A stretch of DNA of 64,000 nt, from NCBI GenBank assembly GCA_010093605.1, contig MU004183.1:62001-126000 (forward strand). Direction: 5' to 3'. This document shows, in pieces, positions 1,770-32,394 of this stretch. Position 1 is the first letter of the stretch. Each line of letters starts with the position of its first letter. A program made the position numbers and the translations under genes. The DNA is from Lophium mytilinum. Its lineage: Eukaryota. The notes beneath the pieces are model-generated. The model did not search any database. It was not told the DNA's origin and saw only the letters and a list, made by a program, of their open reading frames with translations.

Positions 1770-3935
1770 AGTAAAAACAGCAGCGATTTCGACAGAAAAG
1801 GGGCAAAATGTGGTAGAAGTACAAGTAATGTATGAATAGCTAATGATATGGAGCCGTGAATTGTGAAATGTTGAATAGCGAACTGGAGCAGATGGCCGTC
1901 TTTAAATACCCCTTGACTCGCTCATAGTATCACTATTACTTACAACTCGTTTAAATACCACCACCAACCGTTGAACCTCTCCTAGCAAGCGCTGCGTACC
2001 TAGTCTCTGGGGGTCGGAATATCGGAGATGCGAAGCCGACCCCACCAAGCCTCGTCAGCTCCGCTTGCACCCTCGTTCATCCTGGTATCGAGATCTAGGC
2101 AACCATAACCTGACCATCCGAATGTTGGATCAGGCATAGGTGTCGTGCAGGAGTCAGAGGGATTCGCGGACAATCCGCAGAGAAGGCTGCCGCTTGGGCC
2201 CCGACTTCGTGGTTGCCGCATACGATCTAGCGCCAAAGCCCCACAAACTCTATTCTGACCGTGCCCTTCCCTCTCTTCTTTCCACATCCTCCATCTCACT
2301 AACACTGGGAGGGATACTCGCAGCCATCGCTTGTCCTTAATCTTTTCTCATAAGAACATCGTACTCATCAAGACGACGATCTCGCTCTACCAGCGTACGA
2401 CACGCATCATTATCCAGCACATTGGCATTACCCACCATGCGCCTTCCAACCACCATGATCAGAGACCCACATACACGCTGCTTTCGGGCACGGAACACAC
2501 CACCTGAACAGGCCCTAAGTTGGCAAAGTAGCAAGGTAGGCCATACTAACGAAATCGGAGCCGCGGAGTTTTACTGAAGAGATCGACCTGGCATCTCAGC
2601 GTTCTGTCTCAATCTGCTGCGTTTTGTTCCACTCTCTCCTCCCGACGTAAGGCCTCATAGCTATCACTCAGTGGTAAGGAGGCCGCTCGTGGGACCAAGA
2701 GTCGCTAAGTGAAACCGAAACAAAGGTGTTTGTCCATTGGTCAACCCCGGGGTAAGCCATCGTAATAGATGTGGTTTCCGCACAATCTTTTTCGGATCTC
2801 AAGTAGCAATAGACCCTGACAGTTCCTTGACTTTGTTTCCGTGTCCAAACCCGTATTTGGTGGGTTGCTAACTAGGAAACAAGCATTGTGTAAGCATTGC
2901 GGTTGCCTGCAACATCCCGCGAGCAGTGCCTGTCCACGTGGGAGGCAGTGTCAAGCGCGATAAACAGGAAATCCCGAGGCTTACAATGGGGAAGCTCCAT
3001 TGTGTTTGCTTGTAGCTTTAAAGACTTCCATCAGGGTGTCGTTTCATCTTCATCTTTTGTCGCTCAAGGCTCTTTCAGGTTTGAACCATTCTCTTATATC
3101 GTACTCCATCTCATTTAGTCTAACATAAGTCTGAATCGTCCAATGTTCTTTCTTTTCTTTCCTTCTCACTTGTTAAGATATCTCAAGTTTGTCGTGTAAT
3201 TCTATGCTCTACTAACTTTTTAGTAGACTCACGTCCCAGACGTGACGGGAGGATACGGCTTGACGATGTGGAGCCAATCTACTACAAGCAGCTCTTATCG
3301 TGGATTCATCATTCCATTTGCCCTTAATCGATTCTCTGGCGTCGTGTTTGATGTCTAGATTGCTCTTGCCGCGGAGTAAAATGGCGTAGCTTGACGCTGT
3401 CTACTGTTTGGTAGACCGATCAGCCGGCCTTGTATCAGTTTTACCTCTCACGAGGTACGTGATAAAAGAAGCATTGTTCCGAGTTCCCTTTCAACGAGTG
3501 TCCCTCTTATATCGCCGACCGTCGAAAGTTATCTAGTCGCTAGATTGTCGCCAAGTTGCGTAAGCTCCTGTCCTGCGTCATCATTCTATGCACCGCATGG
3601 TGGTTGGGTAAGAAATGGATCCAAAGGTACGGACCAAAGTGCCGCAAGTTGCGCTGGGACGTAGGGTCCTTTTGTGATCGCGTCGCTAGGTATGTTGAAG
3701 TCAGTACCCTCCTCGTTTATGTGGGCCTGCACCTACTGACCGGCAAAAGGTTCCATGTGTTTACATCCCGACATCCCCGGTAGATGATTCCTCCAACTTG
3801 GATAACAACAGGATCAATTGGAGCCTCATCCAGTCTTTGGTGGAGGGCTCCCTGGGCCCGAGCCCTAATGCCGCCTCAGAATACCGCCGCCAAGGCCCGA
3901 GATTCACATTATGATCATGTTTACGAACGTCGAGA

Positions 3936-3967
3936 ACGCGTCTGGAAGACTCGACGCGTCGACGCGT
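3936..3967. promoter_or_regulatory. Cluster of three MCB-like ACGCGT boxes upstream of gene A
   Basis: ACGCGT at 3936, 3954 and 3962. 3954-3967 (ACGCGTCGACGCGT) is a perfect 14-bp palindrome. Function is inferred only. Confidence 0.35.
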
Positions 3968-4442
3968 GTCGCCTGCAGCCCATCGCCCACTGTGCGCGCG
4001 CCCGTGTGATTCGAGGCATCGCCTCGGTAGTAGTGCGCTCGACCAGGGCCACAGTGCGTGCCGCCAGGCCGTGGAATTCCATGGAAGCCGCCTTTCCCCT
4101 GTCAAGTCCGTCTCGATTTCGCTTATCTCTATGAGTCGTTTGTTGCCTCGGGGATGTGTCAGCTGAGCCGGGGTCGTGTGCTCGAATCTGGGGAACATCC
4201 AGGATACCAAACTGGACTAGTGCCCCTACCAAGCCACTCTATTGGTCGAGTACCCCTCACATGTGCCGCCTGTTTCCCGACGCGACTTTCGATAATCCCT
4301 GTCGGGTGCTCGCTAGGCCCTCTGGAGTCCTCGGCAAGGCCAGCACGGTGCTCCCAGACAGCGACGAAGGCGGCAGGCAAGTGGGCGACGCACAGGCCAC
4401 CCAAAGCTGTGATCCGGGGGCACGAATTATTCTTCAGGCCTG

Positions 4443-4450
4443 TATATAAA
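4443..4450 (+). promoter_or_regulatory. TATA box of gene A
   Basis: TATATAAA ~245 nt upstream of ATG 4690, followed by a C/A-rich leader. Confidence 0.6.
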
Positions 4451-4541
4451 GTCCTTCCCATCAACGCGCTTCTACGCACTGTCTCCGTTGCAATTCTCTA
4501 GCTCCCTGCAACAACACCTACAGCTATCCCCGCACCTGCAG

Positions 4542-4657
4542 CTTCGCAGCTTTTATTCTCACGCCAATCGCTTCGCAGCTACTACTATCACATCTCCAAC
4601 TTCGCAGCAACTCTTCTCAGATAAACAGATTTGCAGCAATTATTTCTACATCACCAT
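4542..4657 (+). repeat. Degenerate 29-bp minisatellite (4 units) in the 5' leader of gene A
   Basis: CTTCGCAGC at 4542, 4571 and 4600 and ATTTGCAGC at 4629, at exact 29-nt spacing with partly similar spacers. Confidence 0.75.
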
Positions 4658-4689
4658 ATCGAATAATCCCTCCCACATTACGGAAAACG

Positions 4690-6632
4690 ATGTTTTCTTC
4701 GAACACCTTCAACATCTATACCAGGCCTAGCGCTCCCAACACTACCACGCAGGATACCCCTCTGATATCGCCTACCACTCCCATCAACCGGCCGCGAACC
4801 TCCAGAAAGCGTAAGGCGGAACCTTCTAGTAGTACCAACGCCAACGATCGCACTCCACTCAAAAATCTCGATGGGAACCGACCTTCGAAAAAGCTCAAGC
4901 CCTCCAACTCCAGCGAGAACGAAGCGGACACCACTGCGGAAGAGGTCATGGAAGATGTTCGCCCATCAGCGAAGCATCCTAAAGGTACCTTGGTGCAGCG
5001 TCTTAACGCACGAACTCGGAGGAAGACCGTCCCAAATGGGACTCCAAATACCATTGCTACTTCCAGTGACAGTAAGTCTAGCCCCCATATCCCAGCACAA
5101 GGCATCTCAACTAAACTTCAATAGACGCAACCAACCAAGTCTCAGATGCAACCGATCCATCAGCGATAATCTTTACCTTCAAGCGCGGGAAAAAGTTCCT
5201 GCTGCCGGGGTCGAACGGAGGACCGAAGGGGTACAGTAGCTGGGACAAGAAAACCAATGCGAAGGGGCTTCAGGTCGCTATCGAGAAGCGCGGATTCTTG
5301 GACAGGTTTTTGGGAGGCCGAAACCCGAATCAGATATCGAAGAGAGAAATGATTAATGCTCTCTTGGCCTGGGACATGGACACACTCACTTCCGAGCTGA
5401 AGGTGGAGCTTGAGTCCCGTGGGTATACCTTCTAGGGCTGCGTGAGCCCCGACGAAGTGATCGAGCTGTACCGGAAGGTCGAACATCACATGGAAAAGTG
5501 GGGGGTCAATTACTCTCCTGCACTCTCCCGATTTGACTTCCAGGCCGCGGACGAAAAGTATCGTGCCATGGACTACTTCAAGCTGCTTGATCACGTGGAA
5601 AAGATGTGGGACTACGCGCTGCAGCATTTTCCGGGAAGGGAAATGTTGATTAGGCGCGCAATCACCGACAAATGGGCCGAGTTAATCCCCGACGCCAACC
5701 CTGCCAAAGCTTGGTTCTTGTCAGATCACCCAGCCAGAAAGGCGCCTGTCTTTCCACCTCCTCCCGCAGCGGCATGGCGAGAGCAGTGCACCTTCCGCGC
5801 TTGCTGCCAGGCGTGTGCTCCATTGGAGTCTCTCATGGGAGACGACTTCGAGTTTGGGGACCTTGAGAGTAGCCCTGGGTTCTTTCTTTGCTTTTGGAAA
5901 AGACGGGAAGTTGTGGACTCGGACACACAGATGTCCGACGAGGAAGCCTTGGGTGAGAGCACGGACGATGACAGCGAAGAAGAATCCGAGGACGATGGAG
6001 CAGCTGCCACGACCAACATCCGCCCAAAAGAGCAATCCACCAGGCACCCCCACAACCTCCCCAAAGATGATTACGCAGTGGATTTCGACGTCGAGGCCAC
6101 TGCGGCAAAGTACCGCAAGATGCAGCTCCAGGAGCTCCTTGACCACGTCTCCAAGAAGTGGGCAAGCGCTACCAGCTTGTGGCACGATCGAGACTGGTTG
6201 GTCAGCCGAGCGGTCACGGATGAATTTGCGGCATTGATACCCACCTACGACCCAATCAGGGATTTCTTTTTCCCTGATTCTTCCTATGGCGAGACCGAAG
6301 AAGACCCAATGATTCCGCTAGCACCATGGCGCCATATTTTAGAGATCCAGGGCGCCGACGGCATATGTGAAAGGTGTGCAGCGCTGCATACCTTCGCAGA
6401 CGCAAACGAGCTGGGAGCAATTCTCTCAGTCCCGGTCCATTGCAAGGAGTTCATTGTTCTCGCAACGAAGGAACTGCTCGAGACAAACCGGCGAAACAGG
6501 GAGGCCCAACGTCTCGAGGGGGAGTTCAGTAGAAGGGCTATTCTGTCTGAGACGTCCAAAGATGAGTCTTCTGAGGATGAGGACTACTCTGACGACTTGT
6601 TTGAGGACGAGGAGGAAGAAGAGGAGCTGTAA
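4690..6632 (+). CDS. Orphan family-1 gene A (NLS-rich N-terminus, SAP/HeH-like core, two CxxC-containing repeats, acidic tail), interrupted by one in-frame TAG
   Basis: Exon 4690-5071, intron 5072-5124 (GTAAGT...CTAAAC...TAG), exon 5125-6632. The spliced frame gives LPGSNGGPKGYSSW...IEKRGFLD...ALLAWDMDTLTSELKVELESRGYTF*GCVSPDEV. TAG at 5433-5435 is in frame with ORF 5442-6632. May be a recent pseudogene. Confidence 0.8.
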
Positions 6633-6871
6633 CATAGCTACAGCTAGTTTGCCTGATCATTTGTATATGGGATGGTTGTTTCTGCGTAGCATTTGCAAGC
6701 GTTTATGTTTTTCTGTTCTTTTGCTTGGCATAGCAGCGTGGGCCTTCTTCTCCTACGCTAACTTAGTAGAATACTGCAACTTATTAATTTCTGTACTCTT
6801 CCTCATTCTATAGCCTATATCCCATCAAAGCTCTACGCTTCATCTTCGGCGTCCGTAGCTTCCTGTGTACA

Positions 6872-8322
6872 ATGCCTTCGCCAACCGGATCCTCCAGTGA
6901 TCTCGCCAGCTCCGCCCGCCTCAGTTTTAAAAAAGTCATCACCTCGACCCCGATTAAATTACCACATAAGACTGTGGCTCCGCGTATGAGTGCGCCTCTC
7001 TCCAATATCTTCAAGAAACGTGGGGCAGATGATAGTTGGTAACATTACGAGTACCAGCGACCTTTCAAGAAGCCAAGAGCTCTTTATGTTAGAGCTATGC
7101 CAATCTCCCTGAGACGTCAACAAGATATTGCGAGAGGCACCAAGATTGCTGAAGCTAACGCAATGGATACTTCCGGAGAATCCGGCGCAGATGAAAATAG
7201 TGTGGATAGCCACATGAATGGTCAGTGTATGCTCAAAGTTTTACCACTGGGACATCTAGCTAATCTCTTCATAGAACCATTCACCACGGCTAAAATGGCA
7301 GTTCAGCGAGAACGACCCACCCATCCTCCCGTGCTTTCCGCAATTTCAAACCCACTCCACGTCTCATTCAAGCATGGTTAATCGTTCTGTCTGCCGGGAA
7401 AACTGGTGACCTGGAGAGAGCCACAACGTGGAAGAAGGATCACAAGAAGCAAGTCCTCAAGCTGGAGATCCAAAAGCGTGGCTTCTGGGACGAGGTGTGA
7501 GGGAGAAGTCTATTCCCACAGTGAACGAGTTGGCGGATTCACTGGCGGCTTGGGAGCTCGACGTGCTTCGTGGGGAAATGATAGCTGAGCTCACATCTCG
7601 TGGCTTCACCAAAACCCTACGCGGTGATATCCTACAGATGGACCCCACTACCTCTCTCATTTCAACTTCGAGAAATGCGCCGAACATTACCGAAAGATGG
7701 GGGAAATCTAAATTTCGATACCACGTCGAAGTGAAATGGGGCAACTCGGCCAAGTTATTCGAGAGCAAGTCCTTGCTCCTCAGCCGCGCGGTCACGGACG
7801 AGTTCGCAGGTCTCAATCCCTCAGAAAACCCAGGTCGATGTTTCTTCGTTTATGGCTTCCTCCCAGAATGAGATATCCCACAAATCGCATCATTCATACT
7901 GCGGCGCCGAAGTTGATTGCACAACGTGTCGCGCTGCCGATGTTCTCTTATCCAGCAACGACTTCGAGAACATGTTCGTTTTCCCAGCAAAATGCGATCA
8001 TCTCTTGATGGTCCGCACAAGAGAGCTTGTATATGAGGGTATCATACCATACCTCGAGGCGACCTTGGACGTCGTTGAAGTCGATTATCAACACAACGAC
8101 GTGGGCAAGGGGGGTGACGAGGAGCAATCTGAAAAGGAGACCACGGGTGGAGTCGATTCGAACTCGGAGGACGAGGAGATGTCAGACGAAGAGGACGACG
8201 AAGAGCCTCGAGAGACGTGGTCGCAGCACATTGGGAGGCTTCTCGACGTTAAGGGTGCCAAGAGAGAGGACCGATTGTCCTACTTCACTGACGCCAAGAA
8301 ATGGTACTCGTTGTTCCAGTAG
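6872..8322 (+). pseudogene. Decayed paralog B of gene A
   Basis: ATG 6872, in-frame TAA at 7040 and 7379, intron 7221-7274 in the same phase and position as in A, and at least three frameshifts. Remnants QRPFKKPR..PISL, EIQKRGFWDE, LAAWELDVLRGEMIAELTSRG, LSRAVTDEFAGLNP and CTTCRAA align with A. Confidence 0.85.
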
Positions 8323-9521
8323 CGGTGGAGGCGGAATCAGTTTCTTTGTTTAACCTGTTGAAAGTCTTGCTGGTTTTTCCAATACTTTTTAAAGACCGGG
8401 ATGGAGTAATCATAGTCAAGTCATCATAGTCATGTCCCCAAGTTAGGACCCTGTCATCCGTTGTTATGCTTTCACATGACACCTTAGGCGTTCTTTGTAT
8501 TTAATGCTGCCTTGGCGAATTGGGGGGTTATTTTCGTATCTGTATCTCTTCCTGCTCGGTAGTCTAAAATCCACCAAAAATGGTCTACACCTCATTGTCT
8601 ACGGCTGTGGCTTTGTTGCATCATCAGAACAGCATGAAGGTCCCAATTGATCGCCTTCGCTTCAGTCTCAAGCAAAAAGCCTCTAGTCGTGAGATCTGAA
8701 ATCGCTGTGGATATTGATACAACGATACTAGTAGCAAGACTTCCCGGGATGTTAGCAAGGCCCTAGCGCTTCACCATACATACTTGTTATCGATAGGCGC
8801 TACAAAACGTTCCATATCCTTGCTCCGCCTGCCGGGGGGCGATGGCAGACCGGCGGGCGGGCGGGCGATGCACACGCCACCTACTTTCCATGCGCTTGAC
8901 AACCCGACGCTGTCATTCGGGATCGACTTCCCTCTGCCTACGGTTGGATCGTCCAGACGTCCACACCTCTCTCAATAATACCTGGCTGAACTCGAACCGA
9001 ACCAATCTCCTTCACCTTATTTTGACGCGCTTGAAGACTGATTACTTTAGCAGCCCAGCCTCACAGGCCCATACAATACGTGCATCGCTAAACTTCGCAA
9101 AGAGCGAGAGTTACTTTCTGAAACTTGAGGGGAGCTCTTGGCTTGCTGCATCTCCGTACTTTCCTAACCTAAAATACCCCTGATACCAAGATGGAAGGGC
9201 TCAGCCAAAGAATTCTATTAACTCAACATCGAGGAAATCACAGATGAGTATGGGAATAACACAATTGCCGACGTCCTTTGCCACAAGACCACAAATTTGT
9301 CGAACATCCAGTAAGACCTAGCTATGTTCGCCACTACGAGTCCTCAATTTCTTCTATTCGTTCACAATGTTGAGGCATAGAGTCTAATCGTACCATATTT
9401 ACCAAGAAAGAGGCCAGCCTCGTCAGCCTTGCTACATTGTACGTGCATGTTAGCTAAGACTGGACGGTGAAAGCACTTGACATGGTGAATTAGGGCCCAA
9501 ATCACTTCTGCTCAACGTGTG

Positions 9522-9527
9522 TATAAA
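9522..9527 (+). promoter_or_regulatory. TATA box of gene C
   Basis: TATAAA followed by a pyrimidine-rich leader, ~180 nt before ATG 9704. Confidence 0.5.
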
Positions 9528-9703
9528 GCCTCCTTCTCTCATCCCCTTAGCTTCTCTCTCTCCACCAACCTCGAAGCCTTCCTTTCAAGACCACTACCCA
9601 CACGCACATCCAGATCTTATTCTCAAGCATCACCTTCAAACCCCTTCTTTCACCACCTTCTCTCAGGATATCTAACAACAACAACACCCTGTCCCGAGAG
9701 CCA

Positions 9704-11017
9704 ATGGCTTCTTTTCAGTCTCCCTCCTCTTCCATCCCTTCGCCTAAAGTCAAGGCCAACATCGCCATGGCCACTGGCGCCTCTGAAGAGGGTTCTGCGG
9801 ATGCTGTTGGCGAAGAGGGCATCTCTCGATCGGCCACTGTGGTTCCTAAGATCGACTCTACGCCTCAAGAGACCGATCTGCCCCAGCTTAGCACGTACTC
9901 GGCGAAGCGTGACGAAAATAGCGACCAGGACGAAGATCGTCCTCCGACCAAAAAGGCGAAGACAACTAGCAGCAACCCATTCTCTGAGACGGCGAAGTTA
10001 GGAGACGAGGATCTGCCCATGGAGGAGGCCTCTCTGCCGAAGAAGGAGGGCACGTTCGTCCAACAGCTGAACGACATCAAGCGTAAAGCTTCTCAGCGCA
10101 ACTCTGGCAAGAAGAAGGCATCCGACACGGAAGTTATCCCTCGCCCGCCGACCCTAGATGAGGCTTCGGATCAATCCACAGTCGAAGACTTCATGGAAGA
10201 CTTTGACGAGGACTATGCTCCGGAAAAGAAGTCCGCAGTCCGAGCTGCCCCAGCTCCCCGCCAGGCATCAGCTAGGCGCAAGGCGGTTGCAAAGGGTGCA
10301 AATAAAAAGAAGGCTCGTGCTCCCGTCCCCATCATGAGGACACCTCTCGCCATGCCGAAGGAAGAAGGGGGCCCGAAGAAGTTCGTGACGTGGAAAGGCC
10401 TGACCAATGCTAGGCTTGAGGAGGCTATCAAGGCCCGTGACTTCTGGGATGAGTTTATGGACAGCGACGAAGGAGAGACCAAGAAGGCCATGGCGGAGGC
10501 CTTGGTGGAGTGGGACCTGGCAATCTTGAAGGGGGAGATTCGAATGGAGATCGAGGTCAATGGACCCGATTACAAACTACCAGGGCGAGAGGAGACTCTC
10601 GATGAGATGCTAGCCGATCTCCCTGCGAATAAGGTGCCAAAACAGACACTCGATGTCAGCAACCTGCTCGAGGAGTCGGAAGAAGAGAAGGGTGAGCATG
10701 CAGTCGAGGGTGGTGATTTGGAGCAAACATTGCCAACCGAGTCCGGAAATGCCGCCTCAGGTCAGCTTGCAGTCGAGGGTGGTGACTTGGAGCAAATTTT
10801 GCAAACCGAGTCCAGAGAAGCCGCCTCGGGTGAGCTTGCAGGCGAGAGCGGCGAATTAGAGCAGAATGCCCACGCTGAAATCGAAGAATCTGCCTCGGGC
10901 GAGCAAAAGGATGTCCCGGAAGGGGATGACCAATTGGAAGTCTTGACAGAGGATGAACAGATGGAGGTCTCGAATGGGGATGAGCGACTGGAGGTCTTGT
11001 ATGAATGGGAGAAGTAG
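9704..11017 (+). CDS. Orphan family-1 gene C, 437 aa, intronless
   Basis: Open ORF with the family motifs RPPTKKAK, GTFVQQLNDIKRK, SDTEVIPRP and core RTPLAMPKEEGGPK..W..AIKARDFWDE..AEALVEWDLAILKGEI; acidic repeat tail. Confidence 0.85.
   Translation: MASFQSPSSSIPSPKVKANIAMATGASEEGSADAVGEEGISRSATVVPKIDSTPQETDLPQLSTYSAKRDENSDQDEDRPPTKKAKTTSSNPFSETAKLGDEDLPMEEASLPKKEGTFVQQLNDIKRKASQRNSGKKKASDTEVIPRPPTLDEASDQSTVEDFMEDFDEDYAPEKKSAVRAAPAPRQASARRKAVAKGANKKKARAPVPIMRTPLAMPKEEGGPKKFVTWKGLTNARLEEAIKARDFWDEFMDSDEGETKKAMAEALVEWDLAILKGEIRMEIEVNGPDYKLPGREETLDEMLADLPANKVPKQTLDVSNLLEESEEEKGEHAVEGGDLEQTLPTESGNAASGQLAVEGGDLEQILQTESREAASGELAGESGELEQNAHAEIEESASGEQKDVPEGDDQLEVLTEDEQMEVSNGDERLEVLYEWEK
10700..10906 (+). 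repeat. 69-bp (23-aa) coding tandem repeat x3 in gene C
   Basis: Units begin at 10700, 10769 and 10838: AVEGGDLEQTLPTESGNAASGQL / AVEGGDLEQILQTESREAASGEL / AGESGELEQNAHAEIEESASGEQ. Confidence 0.9.
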
Positions 11018-12458
11018 AAGTGATCTTGAAGGAAGAAAAGATTATCCTGACGCAAACTTCATCCTTGTTTTTCTCTCCATGGCCAGAGTCTCATTCATAG
11101 TCGCTATGTGACCTTGATTGAGGCGTCGTATGCTGGTAAAATAGGCTGATGACTTAAAGATCAGAGAACGGATGAAGTAGCAATCATGATTAGTTTGATT
11201 CTTTTGCTATCATAGGCTTGACCTTTTCAATTGTAATAGAACAAATACAAACTCTTTGCCCTATGACTTAGTCCTCAGACTGGATTGATACAAGCGCCGT
11301 GAGATCTTTGAGTTCTAACAATCAACGCTAACAATCAGCACCAGCAGCAAACAGCGATTCTCATGTACCTAATGTCGCATCTTAATATAATACAGATGCT
11401 ACGGCCTGCAATTCAACAGGTATTGAGTCCGGCTTCATTCAATCCTGCCGCCCGAGCCTCAGGTCGTCCGTCCATTCCTTCTTGTACTAATACAGATCTC
11501 CATGCTTTCGTGGATACCTCTTCTGAAGCATGTCTGAATGTTCTCAACTATCGCACACGTAGAATACCAGCCATCACTACGAGATTTCAGACATCATTAC
11601 AGGTTTCCAATCTTCCTGGAACTAACCCACCACACGTATTTATTCACGGTCGGTCGCTCCGTATGACCAATACAAGCTCCTGTCGATCATCGCTGAAAGC
11701 TCTGCATAAAGGAGATTGTCTACCATCATTGCCCGCTGTATGTGCTTGAGGGGCTGTTACGCTATGACATTTCTCTATAGCAATTAATGCTAGCAGCAAA
11801 TATTGGCTCCTACGTACATGAGTTCGCCTTCTAACGTAGTCTTTTGCTATGACCTGCAATACAGGTTTTGAACCTATTCTGTTAGTGTCTACGTTGCATA
11901 TTGTGGATTACAGACGTGTTATTCCGTTGCGCGTAGTTTATGGTAGAGATATAGCTGTATAGAGCACTAACAATCCTTTTATATCATCCATTTGGTTACT
12001 TTGGCGAGCCTCTTCCGATCTTTCCAATCTCTTGAAACTCCCCGCCTCTCCCCCGCAGAACTTAGTTCGCCGCAGAAGTTGGCCAAAAGCGGTTTCTACA
12101 TGGCGCTCATGCCTCTTAGCTTGTATTGTGAGGGCACATCACAAAGTCGACAGCTTCTGGACGCTGAGATGGACTTTTGAGGCCAGGCGCGGAAATGATC
12201 CAAATCATTCACTGACAAGGTAGCGCATTCAGTGGAAAGAATGGGAGGCCTGTGCTTTCATGTCGCTCGCTCCATTGTGCGTGAATGCCGGGCTGCGAGC
12301 GTCGTGGAGCGACATCGAGTGGTGGACGGCTCCGATCTCACAATTGCTTCTCGTGTATTTATAGGGCCCACCACATCCATACTTTCTTCTCCTCACCACC
12401 CTTAGGAACCAGCAACCACCACATCACCACCTGCACTCTTCCAACAACTCTACCACAC

Positions 12459-12512
12459 AGTTCCCGAGACCAACCCAGTTCCCAAGACCAACCCACATCT
12501 CGAAACCAAACT
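12459..12512 (+). repeat. 18-bp tandem repeat x3 upstream of the likely start of gene D
   Basis: AGTTCCCGAGACCAACCC / AGTTCCCAAGACCAACCC / ACATCTCGAAACCAAACT. Confidence 0.75.
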
Positions 12513-12557
12513 ACCACATCCATCTCTTCATTGTCATCGGTACTGTGCTCATTGCCA

Positions 12558-14459
12558 ATGTCTTCCTCCAATACCTCCGCATCTCCCACCTCTCCTTTCG
12601 CTGCTACATCCAATGCCGGTACCGCCAGACGCAGCGGCGCCGGTCAGCGTCGTACGAGCAGTAGTGGATACAGCGTGGGCTCCAGTGGTGTTCCGCGAAT
12701 GAGCTCATCAGACAACCCGGATACTAGCACCGAGGTGCAGGGTGCATCATCCGATGCTCAAGACAAGAATCGTCCGAATCTAGGTAAACACCAGGTCGAC
12801 GATGACACAGACGAGAACCTCGACCGCCATCCCAAGAAGAAGGCAAAATCAGCTCACACTGGTGGACCAATATCCCTGGGGGACAAGTATGGAGACAAAG
12901 ATGGAGACTCCTCCATGGAGGATGTTGTGCCAGAAAAGAAAGGTGGCAGTTTGTTGCAGCGTCTCAATGCTTCCAAGCGCACTACTGCGAAGTATAGCAA
13001 AAAGGCAGCGAGCGACACTAAAGCCGTTGCTCGTCCAGCCGTCCAACCGAAGAAGGATCTGCCCGTGGAGGAGGATTCAGAAATGGAGTACGTCCCAGAG
13101 AAAGAGGACGAAGATCACGACGCTCCCCATCTCGCAGTACCCGGCCCACCGAGGCAAAAGGCCGCAGCAAAAGGGGCCAACAAGCGCAAGGGTCGTGGCC
13201 CTCGTGGCTACGTGCGGACCCCCTTCGCAATGCCGCGCGAGGATGGAGGCCCAAAGGACGTGTCAACCTGGATGGCCCATTTCCCAAAGGGCAGGCTCAC
13301 CGAAGCTATCAAGTCCCGTGGGTTCTGGGATGAAATCGAAGTCCGTTCCCCAAATCCCACCTGCAAGCAATTGGCGGAGGCCTTGTTGACCTGGGACATC
13401 GCCATGTTGAAAGGCGAGATCCGCGAAGAAATTCTGCTCCACGGCGCAGACCATGTTCATGACGGCCGAAAGGATGAGAAATCCCTTGGTGAAATGCTCT
13501 CGGAACTACCGCCAGACGAAGAGCCAGAGCAAGAAGAAGAAGAAGAAGAACAGGAGCAGGAGGAAGAGAATGAATCGAGCGACGAGCCAATGCCTGAACC
13601 TTTCGAGGGTCCTGACGACGAAGAAGTTGAGCCGCCTATGCCCTCCAGCGAAGCCCAGGTTCAGCGCAATCAAGCATCAGCAACGAACAGAGCAACACGC
13701 TCTCGGCCGATCCCTCGCATGCCCCTGAAGATTTACCCGATGAGGACTGTCGTGAAGCAGGTCAAGACTGTGGTGAACGGTCGCATCTATGAGATCAACA
13801 CGATGAGAAGTGGACATCATGAGGTGAAGACTGTCGCGAACGGTCGTAAGTATACGACGGATTTCCAGAACTGGGAGACTGAACGTATCGTGTGTCCAGA
13901 GGTCTGGATGGCCAACGAGTTCTCCAACTTGATCGCCCTATCAGAGAGAATGGAGAAGAGGAAGGCGGCCGCGAACGCCGGAAAGTCGAAGCAGTCTTCC
14001 CAGCGTAAGCCGCGGGACTGGTCTAAATTCCGTGGTTACCGTTGCATGACTGCACCATGCTGGCTGAAGCTATCGGCCAAGGAACTGCTAGATGCGGCGG
14101 ACAAACGCCTTCACAAGAGCCGTTTGGAGAAACTTTCGCATGAGGAACTTCCATACGTTCTAGCGAAGCAAGAACTCGAGCTCCGGAGGACATTGGCTGA
14201 CAGAAAGCCAACTCCTGATCGCATCAAGAACGTTGAACTCGCGCAGCGAGACTACGACGAGGCGATAGAAGCACGGGAGAAGTCGCAGGCGGATCCGTTA
14301 GGGAGCGTCTATGACTGGCGGCAAGGGATGCCCGCCCCAACGGAAGACTTGAACGAGGGCCTCGAGGATGATATGTTGGCCGCGTTCGGAGCCAACACTG
14401 AACTAGAGCAGAAAGGCAGCCCGGGCCCACTCTTCGAGGATCCTGAAGAGGAGCTATAG
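12558..14459 (+). CDS. Orphan family-1 gene D, ~633 aa, intronless
   Basis: Within ORF 12285-14459. Start placed at GCCAATG 12558 (same context as C and E, downstream of TATTTATA at 12356). Family motifs: RHPKKKAK..PISL, GSLLQRLNASKR, RTPFAMPREDGGPK..AIKSRGFWDE..AEALLTWDIAMLKGEI. Confidence 0.85.
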   Translation: MSSSNTSASPTSPFAATSNAGTARRSGAGQRRTSSSGYSVGSSGVPRMSSSDNPDTSTEVQGASSDAQDKNRPNLGKHQVDDDTDENLDRHPKKKAKSAHTGGPISLGDKYGDKDGDSSMEDVVPEKKGGSLLQRLNASKRTTAKYSKKAASDTKAVARPAVQPKKDLPVEEDSEMEYVPEKEDEDHDAPHLAVPGPPRQKAAAKGANKRKGRGPRGYVRTPFAMPREDGGPKDVSTWMAHFPKGRLTEAIKSRGFWDEIEVRSPNPTCKQLAEALLTWDIAMLKGEIREEILLHGADHVHDGRKDEKSLGEMLSELPPDEEPEQEEEEEEQEQEEENESSDEPMPEPFEGPDDEEVEPPMPSSEAQVQRNQASATNRATRSRPIPRMPLKIYPMRTVVKQVKTVVNGRIYEINTMRSGHHEVKTVANGRKYTTDFQNWETERIVCPEVWMANEFSNLIALSERMEKRKAAANAGKSKQSSQRKPRDWSKFRGYRCMTAPCWLKLSAKELLDAADKRLHKSRLEKLSHEELPYVLAKQELELRRTLADRKPTPDRIKNVELAQRDYDEAIEAREKSQADPLGSVYDWRQGMPAPTEDLNEGLEDDMLAAFGANTELEQKGSPGPLFEDPEEEL

Positions 14460-14581
14460 ACTCCTGCGTAGATCCGATTCTTCTCTTGTTCTTGTTACCT
14501 CTTTGATTTCATTCGTCGACTGTTCCAAAAGGCTACCCGGGAAAGGCTACAAAACGATACTTCGTATAAGCGTTGGTCAGA

Positions 14582-14679
14582 TTTCTGCCACGTGCTTTCT
14601 GCTTTCTGCTATGCGCTCTCTGCCATCTGCTATCTGCTTCCTGCTATGTGCTTTCTGGCTGCTGGTTTCTGTGTTTTGT
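14582..14679 (+). repeat. Degenerate 7-bp microsatellite (T[AT]TCTGC-like, ~14 units) 3' of gene D
   Basis: tttctgc cacgtgc tttctgc tttctgc tatgcgc tctctgc catctgc tatctgc ttcctgc tatgtgc tttctgg... Confidence 0.75.
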
Positions 14680-15820
14680 GTTTATTTTTTGCATATTTTT
14701 GTCCTATACATGCGCGCGTAGCAATGCACAGATACCCCACAAAAAGCCTAATGAATGGTCAAAACTCACACAGCTATTCAAAACTTATATATCTAAGGTC
14801 ATTAGATTAGACATAAAACCACAAAAGACGTTCTAAAATATTACCACTCTCTGAATCTGTGACTTGTATCTCTCATCTCCTGTCATTGATGTTGAACTCC
14901 TGCAATAACACGAATCACACTATATACAAAGCCTAAAAATGGACTCATATATTGCCTTGCTAACGTTTATCTGTCCCAGCTCTACACAGCTCGTGGCGCG
15001 CATATACGGTTTCGGAATCGGCAAGTCATCAAGTCATGCCAAGTCCGATGCGAGGGAATCAAGGCTAACTGTAGATCGATTTGGATCTGCCGAGTAGCTA
15101 ATCGAGCTTCTCCTGACCACGATATTCTGCAGTCAGCACATTAGTCGCATTTGTTTCGGCTGGGATTCGGCCATTGCGGGTTCGGAATTTTATCCAATAC
15201 ATGCAAAGATCCTTCATTATCATATTTCGAACATGAAGCTATCATTGTATAACTATGATGCTCTCTTTCTTCCATCGGCTTAGGCCCCTTTCTCCCCGAG
15301 CCGCAGTTGTCGCTGCGCCCGAGATAGTGACAGTTTGTACTTTATCTATCAGACGAAGGCGCAGATAGGTCATTAGTGGATGACTATGAAAGATTCAGCC
15401 AAACTAAGCCTCTCTACTTATAGTCGTAGATGGTGAAAGGGGTTACTCATTCGCGGTATGACTCTTCAGCTCTAACCGGGTGAGCATTGTGCATAGACGA
15501 AGGTAGAACAGGCGCGCAGCCGCTCTACCTCCGGCACGGTGTAGCATCGAGGCGGCAGTTAGGAGGCAGGCGGCCTGACGCTGTCCGCAGTGAAAGAGGC
15601 CCGTGCACTCACAATGCAGTGAATGCTAGTCAGATTCACCCCTACAGCCTCCATTTAAACCCAACGAGCACACCCGTTCATCATACATCCACCATCGTTG
15701 GAAACCCCACACACACCACTCTCTGCTTATCACCACATCTTCAGTCAAGCTTCAGCAACCCAACCAACACCGCCCCTCGTCCTCACCAATATTTCCTGTC
15801 TCTCTACATCGCCATTCGCA

Positions 15821-17836
15821 ATGGCTTCTCCGGCATCTTCTTTCACGGAGACTGCTAGCCCAGCTCGTGGCAAGACAGAGAGCACAGTCGGCACGAAGCG
15901 TAAGCTGCAGACTGTAGACAGCGACGGCAACGATGAGGTCACACCGAAGACTGTGGGTGACAAACGGCCAAAGAAGAGGGTCAAGCCAGCGAGCGAAGCC
16001 GTCCAAAGCTCCTTGAACCCAAACGGTACAACAATTCCAATCTCCTTGAAAGACCGGTATAAGGGTGATGTAGCTATGGACGATGCCTCGGATAAGTCGA
16101 ACGGTAGTTTTATCCAACAGATTAATGCCTCGAAACGCAAAGTCGCTGGATCAAAGTCGAATAAGAAGGATGTTCCGGATACGCAGGCTATTCCGCGTCC
16201 ATCTGCTTCCGGTGAAGTTGAAGAGCCATCTGCGCGCGACGAGTGCGACTCTCCGATGAACGACGCCCAGGAGGAAGACGAGGAAGACAAACCTGCCCCC
16301 CAAAAGGCTCGCAAGGCGGCCGCAAGTAGGCCAAAGACCGACGCAACTGGCGCCAGCAAGCGGAAATTAGATTCGAGCAGAACAACCCTAGCACTGCCAG
16401 GCGAGCCGGGAGGCCCAAAAGCAATCAGTGTCTGGAGACAGAAATGGTACGGCACCGGCTGTGAACAAGCGCTCAAAGACCGCAGCGTATGGGATGATTA
16501 CGTAGTCAACTGGAAACGGTTGGGAATAAAAGTGACCACACAAGTGAAGGCTGAGGCCCTCTACTGGCACGATATCAACGCGCTGAAGGAAGAACTCCAG
16601 GACGAGATCGAGGCTCGTGGTCCTGAGTTTCAATTTCGGGAGGGCAAAACTCTGGCGGAGTGCCTTGCCGGGCTTCCTGTGCAGGAAGAGCAGGAAGAGC
16701 AGGATGTAGCGCCACCGACGACTTCGAAGCCCGTGAAGAAAACTACGGCGCGTCCTAAGGCGAAAACACCCCATCCTGACGAACGTGAAGAGGATGGCCC
16801 GGTTGTTGCTCCATCAACCTCTTTCGAGAAACCTGTGAATGAAAAAGTCACCCCTGCACGGGCTGAAAGTAAGGCGCAGAAAGGAACTGGTCTCCCAAGA
16901 GACGCATCATCGGGAAAGGCCGAGAAGAAACTTTGGAAGTCAAAACCCGTCCATAAATGGGTCTCTCTATCCGAAGAAGAGCTGCGCAAAGCAGCTCGCA
17001 AGCGCCGTGTAGATCTTACGCCGCATCCACAAGAGCAGTGGGCATACCTCCTAGCCAAGCACGACCTCCTAGAGGAGGACAAACCGGTCGAAAACTTGCA
17101 AGGCGAGTTTGATCAGGTTAAGCAGGCAAAGCAGGAAGCTCTAAGTGCGGATGACCGAGATCAAGCATCTCCCAACCTTTCTATCCAATCTGACCACGTA
17201 GAGGTCGAGACTGTTTCCCCGGACGTAATCGCCGAGAGGATGCAGCCAAACGTGCCTGTGGAGAAAGAAGTAGATGTGCCGTCCACCCGTCCCGTCCCGT
17301 CAAAACGCCCAGAATTGAAGAAGTCTCCTTCAAAAGTAAAGCGCAAGTCCTCAAGCGGTGTTACCAAAAACACTTCTTCACGAAAGGCGGAGAAGAATAT
17401 AAGAAGGATAAATGCAGAAAGGCTGATGGAGGCGGTAGAGCAAGAGAACGAAGATGACTGCATCACCCAGGCTTTAGAACAGGCGTTGTCTGGCCCCGAA
17501 GAGGAACAAAACCCAAAGAAAGCACTGGCAGAGGCAGAAAGGCAGTTGAAAGAAAGAGAAGAAGCCGAGGGCAAGAAAGAGTGGATGGAAGAGGTCCAGA
17601 AAGCGATTTTCGACGCCTTGAAGAGAGACCTAGAGGCCGGGAAGCCGGTTGAGCCGGTCGAAAAGCTGGGAGATGGCGGTGGGTCCGAGGAGAAGCTGGT
17701 GAGATTGTTCGCCGGAAAGTCTATCCAGTGGTTCATCTCCAGCCACTACGCGAGTCGTGGTATTCAACTTTCATATAACTGCCCATTTGACCCTGACGAT
17801 GGCGATGATCCGGGCTTTTGGTCGGAGGAAGAGTAG
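15821..17836 (+). CDS. Orphan family-1 gene E, ~671 aa, intronless
   Basis: First ATG of ORF 15698-17836. Motifs: KRPKKRVK..PISL, GSFIQQINASKRK, DTQAIPRP, LALPGEPGGPK..W..ALKDRSVWDD..AEALYWHDINALKEEL. Confidence 0.85.
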   Translation: MASPASSFTETASPARGKTESTVGTKRKLQTVDSDGNDEVTPKTVGDKRPKKRVKPASEAVQSSLNPNGTTIPISLKDRYKGDVAMDDASDKSNGSFIQQINASKRKVAGSKSNKKDVPDTQAIPRPSASGEVEEPSARDECDSPMNDAQEEDEEDKPAPQKARKAAASRPKTDATGASKRKLDSSRTTLALPGEPGGPKAISVWRQKWYGTGCEQALKDRSVWDDYVVNWKRLGIKVTTQVKAEALYWHDINALKEELQDEIEARGPEFQFREGKTLAECLAGLPVQEEQEEQDVAPPTTSKPVKKTTARPKAKTPHPDEREEDGPVVAPSTSFEKPVNEKVTPARAESKAQKGTGLPRDASSGKAEKKLWKSKPVHKWVSLSEEELRKAARKRRVDLTPHPQEQWAYLLAKHDLLEEDKPVENLQGEFDQVKQAKQEALSADDRDQASPNLSIQSDHVEVETVSPDVIAERMQPNVPVEKEVDVPSTRPVPSKRPELKKSPSKVKRKSSSGVTKNTSSRKAEKNIRRINAERLMEAVEQENEDDCITQALEQALSGPEEEQNPKKALAEAERQLKEREEAEGKKEWMEEVQKAIFDALKRDLEAGKPVEPVEKLGDGGGSEEKLVRLFAGKSIQWFISSHYASRGIQLSYNCPFDPDDGDDPGFWSEEE

Positions 17837-18963: not shown

Positions 18964-21681
18964 TCACACAGCATGTGATGCGGCATCAACCACAGCGCCC
19001 TTCGGGGACCCTTCTGCAATCTTCTCACTGCCCTCGGAGGTACTCTTCGCCTCCTCGGCAGCCCTCTTCTTTGAGGCCCTCATCTCCACCAACTCGCCCA
19101 ACGTCATCTTTTTGGGAGGAGGACTGGCCTTTGACTCGGAAGCCACGTCTTCCTCACGCTTCCGCTTCTTGGAAGAGCTAAGCTGAATTGCGGGAGGCAG
19201 GGCCAGCGGGGTGAGTACTGGTGAGCCCAGTGCAGTGGGTGAATGTGATGCCAGATGATGTGACTGTGGAAGTGTGACTGGAACTGGTACGCTGGCGGAG
19301 GGAGGCGCTGGACTCGGAGGCGCCTCCGCGTTGCCTTCGTGCAGAGTCTTCTGTGGCAAGCCGGAGCTGTTGACTTTGGGCGATTTAATCGGTCGGGCAG
19401 TCATGCGGAGCTTCTTGGCCGCCGGGCCCTTGCTTTCTGTCTCTTTTTCAACCTCTTCACGGGTGCGCTTGGTTGGCTTGTTGAGTTCGACAGTTCGGCG
19501 AGGCTTTTTAGCTTCACGTTCTGTCGTTCTCTGCTGGACTTCGTCTACATCACGGCCGCGCTTCCTGGACGTGACGGCGACGGTCGTGGTTGGACACGAT
19601 GGAGGGGTAACCGGTGCTGATAGAGCAGATGTGCTCTTGGTGACTTCACCGCCAGTTCCGGGTTTGTTCTTGCGCGGCTTCTCCACTGATGCCTTCGTCT
19701 TTGCGACCCCTTGTAGTTCTTGGACTTTCTCATCCTTGGTGTACTCTCCTTCGGGCTTGTTGGAGGTTCTCTTTTCAACGCCAGGGTCGACGAGCTCTTT
19801 GCCGCAAGCGTTAGGTCTTAGGACCTCGAAGGCGACGAGAAATTCAACCAAGAAGTGCTTGTCTCCATCAACCCTCTTCTGGGCAGTCCCGACGTGTTCG
19901 TAGAACTTCCGACTGAATCCGCCCACCACATACTGAGGGTCACGAGACTTGAAGTCTGGCGATTGGCCCGTCGTCAAAGGTCGGAGCTTGCAGCAGATTC
20001 GCCATAGCTTGGCGATGAAAGCAGTGTCTTCCAAGTGTGCTGTGATCCGTTGCTTAACGTCTTTCCTGAGAACACTGTACTCAATCTTGGCGAAAGCTTT
20101 TCGTTCAGAGCTTGCAGTCTTCTTGAATGATGTTTGGACTGCTTTGCTGATATGACCCTGGCTTTCTTTCTTGTCTTCAGATCTCACGTGGCCTCGCACA
20201 GACCCGGCGGTTGCGACACCACGCGCTTTCTTGACAGGAGCATCTTCAGGACCCTTGAGATGCTTAGGCTTCATCGAGGCAGCCCTCTCGTCTCCATTCT
20301 CAGCTGTTGGAACCTTATGGCTGGGAGATGCTTCCAAGATATTCTCCTCGGCGTGCACTACGATATCGAGCGTGTCGTAGAATTGGAGGAGCGCGACCGC
20401 AAAGTCTTTGTCTCGCCTGGTGCCGCCGATATGTTTTGCACACTTCTGTCTAAGAAGCTGTTTCAGCCAGGCGGCACCACGAGAAGTGAAGTGGGTGCCC
20501 GTATTTTTCGTCGGGCGTGTCTCGTGGCAGAACTTCAACAACGAAGTCACAACAGCCACATCATTACCAAGACCCATGATCCTTTTGGCACACTCCTCTT
20601 TGAGATCCTGGAAGTCTTTCTTCGCATAGCTTCCAGTGATGTCCTCAACGGCGCTATCATTTTCGGGCCCATTGCCTCTAGTTACACCTCCATGATCGTT
20701 GTCCTTGTCTTCCATAGGAAGGCTCTTTTCCGCCGAGGCTGATCGAGCGGCTTGCTGAAGTTGATGTTTGACGTATGCTTTGCTGAAGGTGATGAACCCT
20801 TGGCTGTTGCGCTGTGGTCTGAGCTCGTAGTAGTATTTGAGGAATTCGAGCATAAACTTCATGTCTCCTGGAACTCTGTTTCGCTTCGAGACTCCAACGT
20901 ATCTCTCATACCTGTCCCGCAGCCGAGTATACAAGTAATGGAAGTCACCCGTCTTTTTCTTGTCGTAGGCCCGGCCTTCAGAGCGTCCCAATTGGCATGC
21001 GCATTCCAGGAGATTGATCAAAAGCTCCGAATCCTTCAAATCGACATCGATGCACAATTTGTTGTAGAAGATCAACCTGAGCGCTTTGAGCTGCTCCCAG
21101 TCTGGGTCTCTAGACTTAGAGGTACTCTTGGCGCCTTTCTGCTTGTCCCCGGAGACTTCGGATTGCGCATCGCTGCCTGCTCGGGTGTTCGACTCATCGC
21201 CGCGCTTGTCGTCCGCAAAAGGATCGTAGGACTCGAGTGTACAATCAGTGTCCCAGTCACCGATCTTGTTCTGAAGGTCGAACGAGACAATGCGGTCAAT
21301 GAGGTTACGCTTTGTAGTGGACTTAGGATAGGTGATGCCATCACGATCGCACAAGGCTCGGAGTTGGGGCAGGGTGTAGTCCTTGTTGTACTCTTTCGGG
21401 TCGAGGGGGCGGATCGGGAGTTCATCTTCATCTCCAAAGACGTTAGTCGAAGACAGCTAGCATAGTGAATGAGGATACGTACTAGATTCGGAGTCGCCGG
21501 ACTTCTTCACAACCTTGATCGCGACACCTCGGCGATTGGACGTGTCTCCGCCGCCGTGTGGGCCTGCGCGTGTGTTCGTCAGGTCTCGGAGGACAGGGCG
21601 ATCCGAGTCCTATCATAACATCATGTTAGCCTTGGGTGAAACGCGTGTCAATGTCAAGCTATCGTGGCATGCTAAAGGCAT
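18964..21681 (-). CDS. Orphan gene F: N-terminal HeH/SAP-like motif, three ~90-aa helical repeats, basic low-complexity C-terminus
   Basis: 796-codon ORF extended 5' through intron 21482-21432 (GTACGT...ACTAAC) and a probable GC-AG intron 21672-21610 to ATG 21681. Motif YTLPQLRALCDRDGITYPKSTTKRNLIDRIVSFD; several KRKR/AKK NLS-like tracts. Confidence 0.8.
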
Positions 21682-24187: not shown

Positions 24188-25537
24188 CGCAGCGTGATTT
24201 GGCGTGTGGCATCTTGGCGGGGTGGTCTTGTTCTATACCAGCATTGCGGAGTTTGGGAGTTGGTCCCAAGGCCGGAGCATCGCGCATTTGCGTAGGTCTA
24301 CTTATCAGCAGACTTTAATTGAGCGTATGTGCAGTTTTCGTGTACCTTTAGTGGTGAAACTGGATTTGGATGCATCTACGCTACCTATAATTTCTCTACC
24401 GACTACTTTCGATACAGCATGACAATCCCGATGTTCAACTTAGTTTCGGCACTAATTTCGGGCGAAATGGCATCCAACAGGGTACTTTGAGCTCCTGAGA
24501 GAGCCGTTATCATGGGTAGTACTATGCTACCGCAGGACGCTGAAGCCATACCAGGGATTCCGCATTCGCTGAGAACATCAAGCATCCCCATATACCTTTT
24601 CAATCTGATAAAGTGGAGATCGAGGATGTTTCCAGGGACGTAATCGGTGCCCGTGATGGCAGCAGTCTAGTCCAACTCATGTCGCAACCGCTTACCGAAG
24701 GACGACCTTCAAACGATCAGACCGGCTGCTGACATCGGACAGATCCCTACATGCCCCTGTATGGTGTATCTAGATATTTACATGGACGTCGAACGCAGCG
24801 CTACGTAGTTTCCATATTTAAAGCTCTGCATAGATCCACAGAACTCTACTACGCATGTTTTCCAGGCTTCTTCAGCAATTCATCTTTCTCAAGGCTCTCC
24901 CAATCAGCTCCTTCGATTGGGAGCCTTCCCAGTTCTTTCAACACACCGCGAGTCCAGTAGATCTCACATTTACCCTTCCCCGTTGACGGGCAGGCCTCCA
25001 CTCGTCACCATCCTCGTCACAGCCTACTCTTAAGACCCCTTTCAGTCTACACTACCCTACCTTCTACCTTTAAGATATATTTGACAGCTAAGCTTTGCAT
25101 CGTCGCCATCCCCATCTCCACACATTCCTAAGACCTCACTTCGTACAATCGAAACCTACCTCACGCCTCTATAGCGGCTATTCCGCGCTGCTCTAATTAT
25201 CCTTACTACAGCACGGTCTCATCAACTACTTTGAAGCACCAGCCTGGTCTATCAGCCATACAGGCATCAAGCCAACACTTGCTTGTTGCTCAATCATACA
25301 CCTCATATCCTCACCAACTGAAGAAAGTTTGTGGCACTGCGGATGAAGTTAGTCGTGCTGCTTCATTTCCATTCAAAGTCGATTCCAGAACTCATATCGG
25401 CCTCCAATCAGCTTCTTCAACCTCATCCCTCTCCCATCTCAAGGATTAATCACGACCTCACAAATTCGCGACTTAGGCACTCCAGTAATGCAAAGCGGAT
25501 CTCCGAAGATCAGATAAAAACCTTACCTACGTCCATC

Positions 25538-26506
25538 ATGGACGTCAACGCCGGACATCACCCTTATCACAGACATAGGGGCGTGGAAATACCATATTAC
25601 CCATCTTGTTACTTCATCCGTATGGAGGACGAAGGAAGCGAGAGCGAGTCCATGGATGGGATTTCCAACGATACATCCAGCGGTCCGTCTGGACGGCACA
25701 CAAAGTTCATGGACGATGGACAGCATGCTGCGACAAGTGTCAAAGATAGCGCAAAGACGATGTCTGAGGACAGAGCACATGCAGCTGAAGCGGGGAAGCA
25801 GCCTGAAGCAAGGAACTTTCATCCGGAAGAGACGACGGGTACTACGAACGCAGTAGCCACAGCGACACGAGGCGAAAGCCCGAAAACTAGGACGGTGTTA
25901 GCCGAGATCGATGCTGTTCGAGAACGCAATCGGGTTCACTTCGAGGAAAGGCGCTTGGCAGACCTCGTTCTCGGCTCCGCAAAAGACATTATTCAAGATC
26001 TTGAGCGGTTGCTGAAGGACCGTACTCAGAAGTATCAAAACAAGAAACAAGCATGGAAAGACAACATGGAGAGTGCAAAAAGGGGTCATCAAGAGGAGCT
26101 GCAAAATTTGGAAGCTGGTAACAGAGCTGAGATTGAACGTATGAGAAAGGCCAGAGATGCAGCAGAGAGCCTAGGCCTAAAAGAGCAGGAACAGCTGAAG
26201 GCAGAGATGTACCGAAATCGCTCCGAATGGTACGCAAAGGAACGTCGTCTCAAGAGTACTATCGATGCACTCCGGCTCTCAGGAACTAGAAAAGATGAAA
26301 CGATCACTCAGCTTACTTCCGAGAACGAGGATCTCCAGAAAAGGCTTGCTGCTGGGGAGAGTGCTCTTCCAGATTCTAACTCTGACACTTCCCGAAAACG
26401 TCGATGCTTTTACTCCAAGGCCACGCCTAGGAGCAGTCAATTCGCGGTCATCGACTTGACTACAGATGCATACGAGAATGCTCATACTCCATCGCCAGGG
26501 AACTGA
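25538..26506 (+). CDS. Orphan family-2 gene G: coiled-coil protein with NLS-like RKRR; RING-less paralog of K
   Basis: First ATG of ORF 25331-26506 (alternative ATG 25622). RNRSEWYAKERRLKSTIDALRLSGTRKDETITQLTSE aligns with K's KNRSEWLGTNKGLESRIQELERSGTEKDDEIARLTSE. Confidence 0.75.
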   Translation: MDVNAGHHPYHRHRGVEIPYYPSCYFIRMEDEGSESESMDGISNDTSSGPSGRHTKFMDDGQHAATSVKDSAKTMSEDRAHAAEAGKQPEARNFHPEETTGTTNAVATATRGESPKTRTVLAEIDAVRERNRVHFEERRLADLVLGSAKDIIQDLERLLKDRTQKYQNKKQAWKDNMESAKRGHQEELQNLEAGNRAEIERMRKARDAAESLGLKEQEQLKAEMYRNRSEWYAKERRLKSTIDALRLSGTRKDETITQLTSENEDLQKRLAAGESALPDSNSDTSRKRRCFYSKATPRSSQFAVIDLTTDAYENAHTPSPGN

Positions 26507-31501: not shown

Positions 31502-31573
31502 AAAAGTTCAGTGATTTCTGGGTAGGCGAGTAGGTGTCAGATCTCAGGATCCGAAAAGTTCAATGATTTCTGG
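31502..31573 (+). repeat. Two direct copies of a 20-bp motif, inverted relative to the 135-bp repeat at 32.0-32.3 kb
   Basis: AAAAGTTCAGTGATTTCTGG (31502-31521) and AAAAGTTCAATGATTTCTGG (31554-31573). The first is the exact reverse complement of 32207-32226. Confidence 0.85.
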
Positions 31574-32345: not shown

Positions 32346-32394
32346 ATCCCGCGCCATGTCACTACCGTTGACGATAGGCCATGTACGGAAACCT

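Follow-up and report, generated by a model that had tools for sequence, protein, structure and literature searches.

Six paralogous loci encoding a divergent, HeH-like core domain in Lophium mytilinum

The SAP domain (PF02037; Ku70, PIAS1, SDE2, Tho1, Hcc-1), the LEM/HeH domains (helix-extension-helix; emerin, PF12949), whose proteins belong mostly to the inner nuclear membrane, and the Rho N-terminal (PF07498) and T4 endonuclease VII C-terminal domains have one fold in common. Passages of two accounts describe SAP as a helix-loop-helix of 35 residues with a conserved loop glycine, which contacts DNA through the loop and the helix tips, aided by flanking lysines (PMC9399289, PMC9958909), and in one of them the glycine, lying shortly before the second helix, is tied to DNA binding (PMC9399289). 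The theme of the present work is an array of paralogous genes, A to F, whose products carry a core domain that resembles this fold and departs from it in several respects. Five of the loci lie in a stretch of 64,000 nucleotides from Lophium mytilinum (Mytilinidiales), referred to here as the window, which spans positions 62,001 to 126,000 of contig MU004183.1 (G000:C3:62001-126000) in an assembly of 43.4 Mb and 49 contigs (GCA_010093605.1). We describe the array and its distribution, the predicted fold of the core and what it may bind, and the state of the broken copies.

An old and narrowly distributed array

An initial annotation of the window, made from its letters alone, had noticed five tandem paralogs, A to E, sharing an unnamed core. 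The five copies do form one DNA repeat family, and all five are on the + strand as it held, but the array comprises six loci, four intact (C, D, E and F) and two broken (A and B); the sixth, F, went unnoticed, as did an intron and an in-frame stop (5433-5435) in A and the breakage of B. Unless marked otherwise, coordinates are those of the window:

4690..5435, + strand: gene A, first part, from ATG 4690 to stop TAG 5433-5435, 230 amino acids; basic patch at 4879, core 5199-5423
5433-5435, + strand: in-frame TAG directly 3' of the core, dividing gene A
5436..6632, + strand: gene A remainder, frame unchanged, 398 codons; from ATG 5490, P0012 of 380 amino acids
6872..8322, + strand: gene B, an A/F-type pseudogene, recovered as tblastn pieces in changing frames
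9704..11017, + strand: gene C, intact, single exon, 437 amino acids from the first ATG; basic patch at 9938, core 10349-10564 with an extra helix to about 10620, acidic tail
12558..14459, + strand: gene D, intact, single exon, 633 amino acids; basic patch at 12828, core 13227-13445, C-terminal helical module 14061-14180, also in E
15821..17836, + strand: gene E, intact, single exon, 671 amino acids; basic patch at 15965, core 16391-16621, C-terminal helical module 16958-17071
G000:C3:51915-53579 (L005:931-2595), - strand: gene F, the sixth copy, intact, 449 amino acids, 8 kb upstream of the window

The core, with its motif [LM]P-x3-GGPK-x4-W, is found where it had been placed in A, C, D and E, but that of B is broken over three frames and has GDLE instead of GGPK, and the motifs that follow match exactly in C and D alone, A reading RGFLD and INALLAWD and E reading RSVWD and AEALYWHD. 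Sixteen core columns are invariant in A, C, D and E, the other three of these copies are 52, 40 and 30% identical to the C core, and blastp E-values of 1e-9 to 1e-34 among the four exclude a chance resemblance. The N-terminal motifs listed alongside the core are unevenly kept: a basic patch of the RP/HP-xKK type is present in 5/5 copies, G[ST]xxQxxN in A, C, D and E, DTxx[IV]xRP in C, D and E, and PISL only in B, D and E. The C-termini, described as different, are not all so: A, B and F have one module in common, which ends in CxxC and is doubled in A, and D and E another, short and helical. Both tail modules look SAP-like by eye, with profile scores of 3% from hand-cut alignments and up to 64% for A/F windows. 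In C, three 69-nt tandem repeats (10691-10897) form part of the acidic tail.

A profile of the five cores, run against 1.84 billion cluster representatives, gave seven matches, six of them family members and one a bacterial repeat protein (P0008; Endozoicomonas, 1523 amino acids; 1/7), which was dropped, its score being the total from 10 stretches of a repeat of 34 residues that match profile positions 49-76 only. A word-index search in which 8000 candidates were scored gave nine matches, five from this genome and four from a single 666,694-bp contig of Mytilinidion resinicola (accessions KAF2803891, 893, 895 and 902), the counterparts of A, C, E and F; in the databases searched, M. resinicola is the only source of relatives beyond this genome. 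No M. resinicola counterpart of D (among the nine matches) or of B was found by these searches, which cover annotated proteins only. The tail module of A/B/F had four matches among 8000 candidates, from the same two sources, in a search of limited reach since it missed P0006. Core identities between counterparts are 65-92% (81% for E and P0004) and those of the N-terminal parts 47-57%, the core being the best-kept part; C and P0002 are 74% identical over the part searched. In the tree, A/F split from C/D/E (100/100) and E and F pair with their counterparts (99/100), while for A and C the tree leaves the forks unresolved, the pairwise identities to their counterparts being 67 and 88%; the pairing and the identities together make the duplications older than the split of the two species. 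Synonymous differences per site exceed nonsynonymous ones (pS > pN) in 10/10 paralog pairs, four of them saturated (for C-D, the corrected rates dN and dS are 0.42 and 1.93), and the core is, as judged from the counterpart identities and these codon comparisons, under purifying selection.

This is a real, old and narrowly distributed paralog array, of which no published account was found in a mostly open-access literature, supplements excluded, either by the six M. resinicola identifiers or under fungal SAP/HEH expansions; passages of a paper that places these species as close relatives of Cenococcum hold nothing on the A-F family (PMC12910237). That it is instead mobile-element debris or a set of non-functional duplicates might be suspected from the two broken copies of six and from the AT-rich contig end 50-85 kb away, whose blocks (C3:2-14 kb and 18-30 kb) have RIP-like (repeat-induced point mutation) indices of 1.6-2.0 (TpA/ApT) and 0.15-0.47 ((CpA+TpG)/(ApC+GpT)). 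This is very improbable, however, given four counterparts on one M. resinicola contig under near-consecutive accessions, a core under apparent purifying selection, array genes without RIP bias, no inverted repeats in window 2000-24000, and a whole-genome search with the C core in which 5/5 candidates matched at this one locus (all within C3:52.5-78.6 kb; B was missed). The label "subtelomeric" was dropped for the array because no telomere repeat is present in the first 600 bases of C3.

A predicted HeH core and what it may bind

AlphaFold2 models built on a nine-sequence alignment give the C core a predicted local distance difference test score (pLDDT) of 88.6 and a predicted template modelling score (pTM) of 0.78, with helices at residues 22-26, 30-39, 43-47, 55-81 and 94-100, and show the same core in F at pLDDT 85-92, followed by an unreliable tail (mean 61.8). 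In an exhaustive structural alignment against 48,161 chains, which ranks HeH-type domains top for both models, the F model is matched best by the Rho N-terminal domain (1-48; Z 7.1, root-mean-square deviation (rmsd) 2.4, 48 aligned), a three-helix HeH variant (PF07498) with unrelated rows within 1 Z of it and no Pfam Rho_N match for any core. Next come TAF1 992-1035 (Z 6.3), a nuclear-pore chain (Z 6.2) and Cas13d (Z 6.1), and also endonuclease VII 103-157 (Z 5.6), CDNF (Z 5.4) and the emerin LEM domain (Z 5.3, rmsd 1.5, 39/42 residues). The C model finds endonuclease VII (Z 4.8, rmsd 2.2, 54 aligned) and Rho (Z 4.5), and both models, predictions themselves, superpose on several SAP structures at modest Z values of 3.2-4.9 (rmsd about 2-5). 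The tool warns that Z below 8 may reflect only a common helix arrangement, and weight is therefore placed on the agreement of two paralogs and on the enrichment of HeH rows: 6/50 and 4/50 rows (F and C models) are titled SAP or LEM, and 17/50 and 10/50 if chains that we take to be HeH are added. The matches cover model residues about 10-72, mainly the first of two units. The models support an HeH shape for residues of about 20-72, the first half of the core (unit 1), with the GGPK arm ahead of it and, behind it, a long helix and a putative second unit in degenerate form (unit 2).

Sequence databases do not name this domain. Pfam, NCBIfam, PDB sequences and Rfam hold nothing significant for A-F, and the core falls outside both SAP and HeH as Pfam defines them: against a SAP cut-off of 23.9 bits the best score is that of the F core, 12 bits, those of A, C, D and E giving no match, none of the 19 Pfam SAP matches in this genome lies within the array, and the cores match neither HeH (PF12949), LEM nor MSC at E up to 1 or 10. 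A likeness emerges when profiles are compared (hhalign) with one built from the 14 above-cut-off members of those 19 SAP matches: unit 1 scores 87% (pairwise E 4e-6) and 0/150 column shuffles reach its score; by clade, A/F score 92% and C/D/E 6%, each above 200/200 shuffles. Among 203 sliding windows the top places go to the A/F core and to the N-terminal unit of the neighbouring genes G, H and I (see below), with 31 coiled-coil decoys at no more than 2%. With a hidden Markov model (HMM), shuffles reaching the score number 0 for F, the most SAP-like copy, 1 for C, 4 for A, 12 for E and 174 for D, out of 500 each. Unit 1 compared with unit 2 gives 34% (0/100 shuffles), and unit 2 compared with SAP 12%, its reversed control giving 11%. 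In Atlas features the HeH and SAP clusters lie at 0.75-0.81 (HeH 0.78-0.81), below the 0.9 mark, and count as leads only.

Compared with SAP, the array proteins have the two helices and extended loop, the R-G-hydrophobic loop start, the K-x2-M/L-x3-L-x3-D pattern of the second helix and the long disordered protein around the domain. Unlike SAP, the loop is 4-10 residues longer with a short extra helix, its final glycine is mostly absent, a conserved GGPK-x4-W arm and a putative fused second unit are present, scores stay below the Pfam cut-off, and no enzyme or RNA-binding domain is attached. The Rho and endonuclease VII domains are the best structural matches and also have a short helix ahead of the helix pair, but identity to them is 8-17% and the array proteins have no Rho RNA-binding/ATPase or nuclease parts. 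LEM/HeH resembles the core in the emerin superposition and in the HeH clusters, the best named Atlas leads, and differs in that the cores have no match to its Pfam families and in that no domain set like that of the LEM/HeH proteins was found here. An orphan helical domain, its likeness to HeH convergent or a modelling artefact of a nine-sequence alignment, would fit the low Z scores, the absence of Foldseek and Pfam matches, the sub-threshold Atlas features and the weak sequence signal of C/D/E; yet two different paralogs yield the same fold and the same top matches, and profile, structure and language-model features converge on one clan as decoy helices do not, which leaves this explanation unlikely. 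Two models, structure search and profile comparison support the SAP/HeH-like fold of the initial annotation where unit 1 is concerned, and it falls short at the Pfam cut-offs and the loop glycine.

The reading that we rank first, at a probability of about one half, is that the array encodes lineage-restricted, mostly disordered nuclear adaptors in which a divergent, extended HeH module (SAP/LEM/Rho-N type) tethers the protein to chromatin or RNA without specificity. Across nine cores the loop start has Arg in 9/9, Gly in 6/9 and a hydrophobic residue in 9/9, and a Lys begins helix 2 in 6/9, with one more shifted by one residue; the 40 residues before GGPK have a net charge of +6 to +9 in 7/9 proteins, and unit 1 carries a net positive charge in A, E and F as well as in their counterparts (+2 to +4 for A/F) and is neutral in D. 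DNA tethering and a nuclear location are inferences, import into the nucleus being suggested by one feature, the basic motif. The basic N-terminal patch would direct import; the HeH loop, with its R-G-hydrophobic start and the Lys at the start of the next helix, and the basic stretch before it would hold the protein on chromatin or RNA irrespective of sequence; and the variable acidic tails with their extra helical or CxxC modules would recruit different partners.

Several results weigh against this reading. No Pfam family exceeds its cut-off for the A-F cores, all the best Z values are below 8, and Foldseek returns no match at E 0.001 from PDB or BFVD. The SAP sequence signal is carried by A/F, with C/D/E alone at 6% and no C/D/E window in the top 22 of 203, and unit 1 without its last four columns drops from 87% to 24%; in the HMM comparison D fails to beat its shuffles (174/500). 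The SAP loop-end glycine occurs in 2/9 cores (C and its counterpart) versus 14/14 SAPs of this genome, C has an acidic unit 1 (net -4), and 8/9 cores have an acidic unit 2.

Some of these features would suit a core that, with the same fold, binds protein (as in LEM-BAF, MANF/CDNF-BiP and SLX4-MUS81) and makes the array products nuclear scaffolds with no direct contact to nucleic acid. Protein-bound HeH domains are among the best matches (9i5y, 7ndy, 7bu5, 6h9u), and many of the HeH domains matched have a protein and not DNA as ligand, titles for the F model including BiP-CDNF, BiP-MANF and BAF-emerin; acidic and aromatic residues (FWDE) make up the C/D/E loop, which has no SAP glycine; and the invariant P, GGPK and W fall outside the SAP signature. 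A/F, however, retain the R-G-hydrophobic start, the helix-start Lys and a net basic unit 1, and we place protein binding second, as a possible but less probable alternative to tethering. The A/F and C/D/E clades may differ in binding role.

Broken copies and proposed array turnover

DNA contigs of runs X1 and X2 and a spliced contig of run X3 were compared with the window letters. The former show zero differing letters across A-E, and assembly error was accordingly rejected as the source of the lesions in A and B; as X1/X2 are maybe the source sample, their agreement rules out assembly error only. X3 covers A and G, not B-E, and has no bearing on the expression of B-E; none of the runs listed is registered as RNA. 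In A it skips an intron of 53 nt (5072-5124, GT..AG), giving a spliced product identical to P0005, and the TAG at 5433-5435 is unaltered in X1/X2 and X3 alike. Beyond the TAG lie two copies of the helical module ending in CxxC (5532-5819 and 6084-6380) and an acidic tail, and in the M. resinicola counterpart (P0007) the frame reads on through a Glu at this position, which marks the TAG as a nonsense mutation, as opposed to a Trp codon disguised for editing. The frame open for 398 codons past the TAG, and a transcript that spans it, might otherwise suggest a programmed stop converted to Trp by stage-specific A-to-I editing, as in Fusarium graminearum; with Glu, not Trp or stop, in P0007, and no A-to-G change in the single spliced contig, which keeps the A (stage of run not stated), this is highly improbable. 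Gene A is spliced and transcribed, and is cut by the TAG.

The X3 contig over A starts >2.3 kb upstream (window 2400-4690, +) and lacks the 60 nt of an intron at 3688-3747. Met-started frames of the + strand reach at most 116 amino acids in this stretch, a TATA-like site lies at 4443, and the extra sequence could be a long non-coding leader, or else an upstream transcript that was merged in.

Gene B is more extensively damaged, with stops at 7040, 7379 and 7708, five frame changes (near 7399, 7497, 7650, 7710 and 7870) and a probable intron ending at 7274. RIP was rejected as the cause of its decay, the indices being normal (0.56 and 1.16). The array would turn over by birth and death, with B dead, A cut recently and C, D, E and F intact. 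Between C and D, a short dispersed repeat (11393-11605) has eight matches, itself included, on five contigs at 69-85% identity, and no Rfam match.

Neighbouring genes and significance

The array is flanked by genes of other kinds:

609-1901: O-methyltransferase, Pfam-supported
18964..21456, - strand: G, of a second family, on a spliced contig; N-terminal SAP-like unit at about 21270-21400, further helical repeats
23782: Arf GTPase, Pfam-supported
25322-40271: genes for coiled-coil proteins with terminal RING-like or cysteine clusters, linked among themselves; RING matches below cut-off
42693: pantothenate kinase, Pfam-supported
58718-59128, - strand: short coiled-coil/winged open reading frame (ORF), presumably Hop2-like; Pfam did not name it so
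G000:C3:42002-44641 (L008:5-2641), - strand: HET-domain gene, Pfam PF06985 above cut-off
C3:53.7-61.5 kb (L009:1738-3642, 4748-5137, 7077-9539), + strand: H, J and I, relatives of G

Relatives of G are found only upstream, at C3:54125 and C3:59209; H stands head to head with F, and J, with only a 130-residue frame, looks broken. The N-terminal unit of G/H/I scores 94% against the SAP profile of this genome, and G matches Pfam Rho_N (E 0.022) and SAP (E 0.12), both below cut-off. At E 0.01, blastp gives no link from A-F to G-J or to the coiled-coil/RING family. Elsewhere on the contig, two similar-looking uncharacterised ORFs (G000:C3:17232-18095, -, and 37347-38318, +) both contain QRxANxxGMPIxDxGxGxLVI, and the first adjoins a small cysteine-rich ORF.

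The stretch C3:51.9-83.5 kb might be seen as a dedicated island in which two unrelated families (A-F and G-J) contribute some ten genes, all with SAP-like modules, beside the coiled-coil/RING/zinc-cluster family and near the HET-domain gene, and hence as a lineage-specific, chromatin-acting conflict locus. We consider this doubtful; if true, the locus would serve to silence repeats, to tell self from non-self, or to exert or suppress meiotic drive, shuffling tethering modules and effector tails, with nonsense changes switching copies off.

The reach of the finding is narrow, covering two species in the searched data and no phenotype. Within it, a paralog array whose copies have decayed to differing degrees persists in a genome whose repeats show RIP-like damage, and the core of the array would constitute an unnamed, strongly diverged branch of the SAP/LEM/HeH domains, set apart by its GGPK arm on the N-terminal side, its lengthened loop and a putative second unit fused on, that is missed by Pfam and Foldseek. 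The SAP-like F and the acidic C would form a clean pair for how an HeH module shifts between binding nucleic acid and binding protein.

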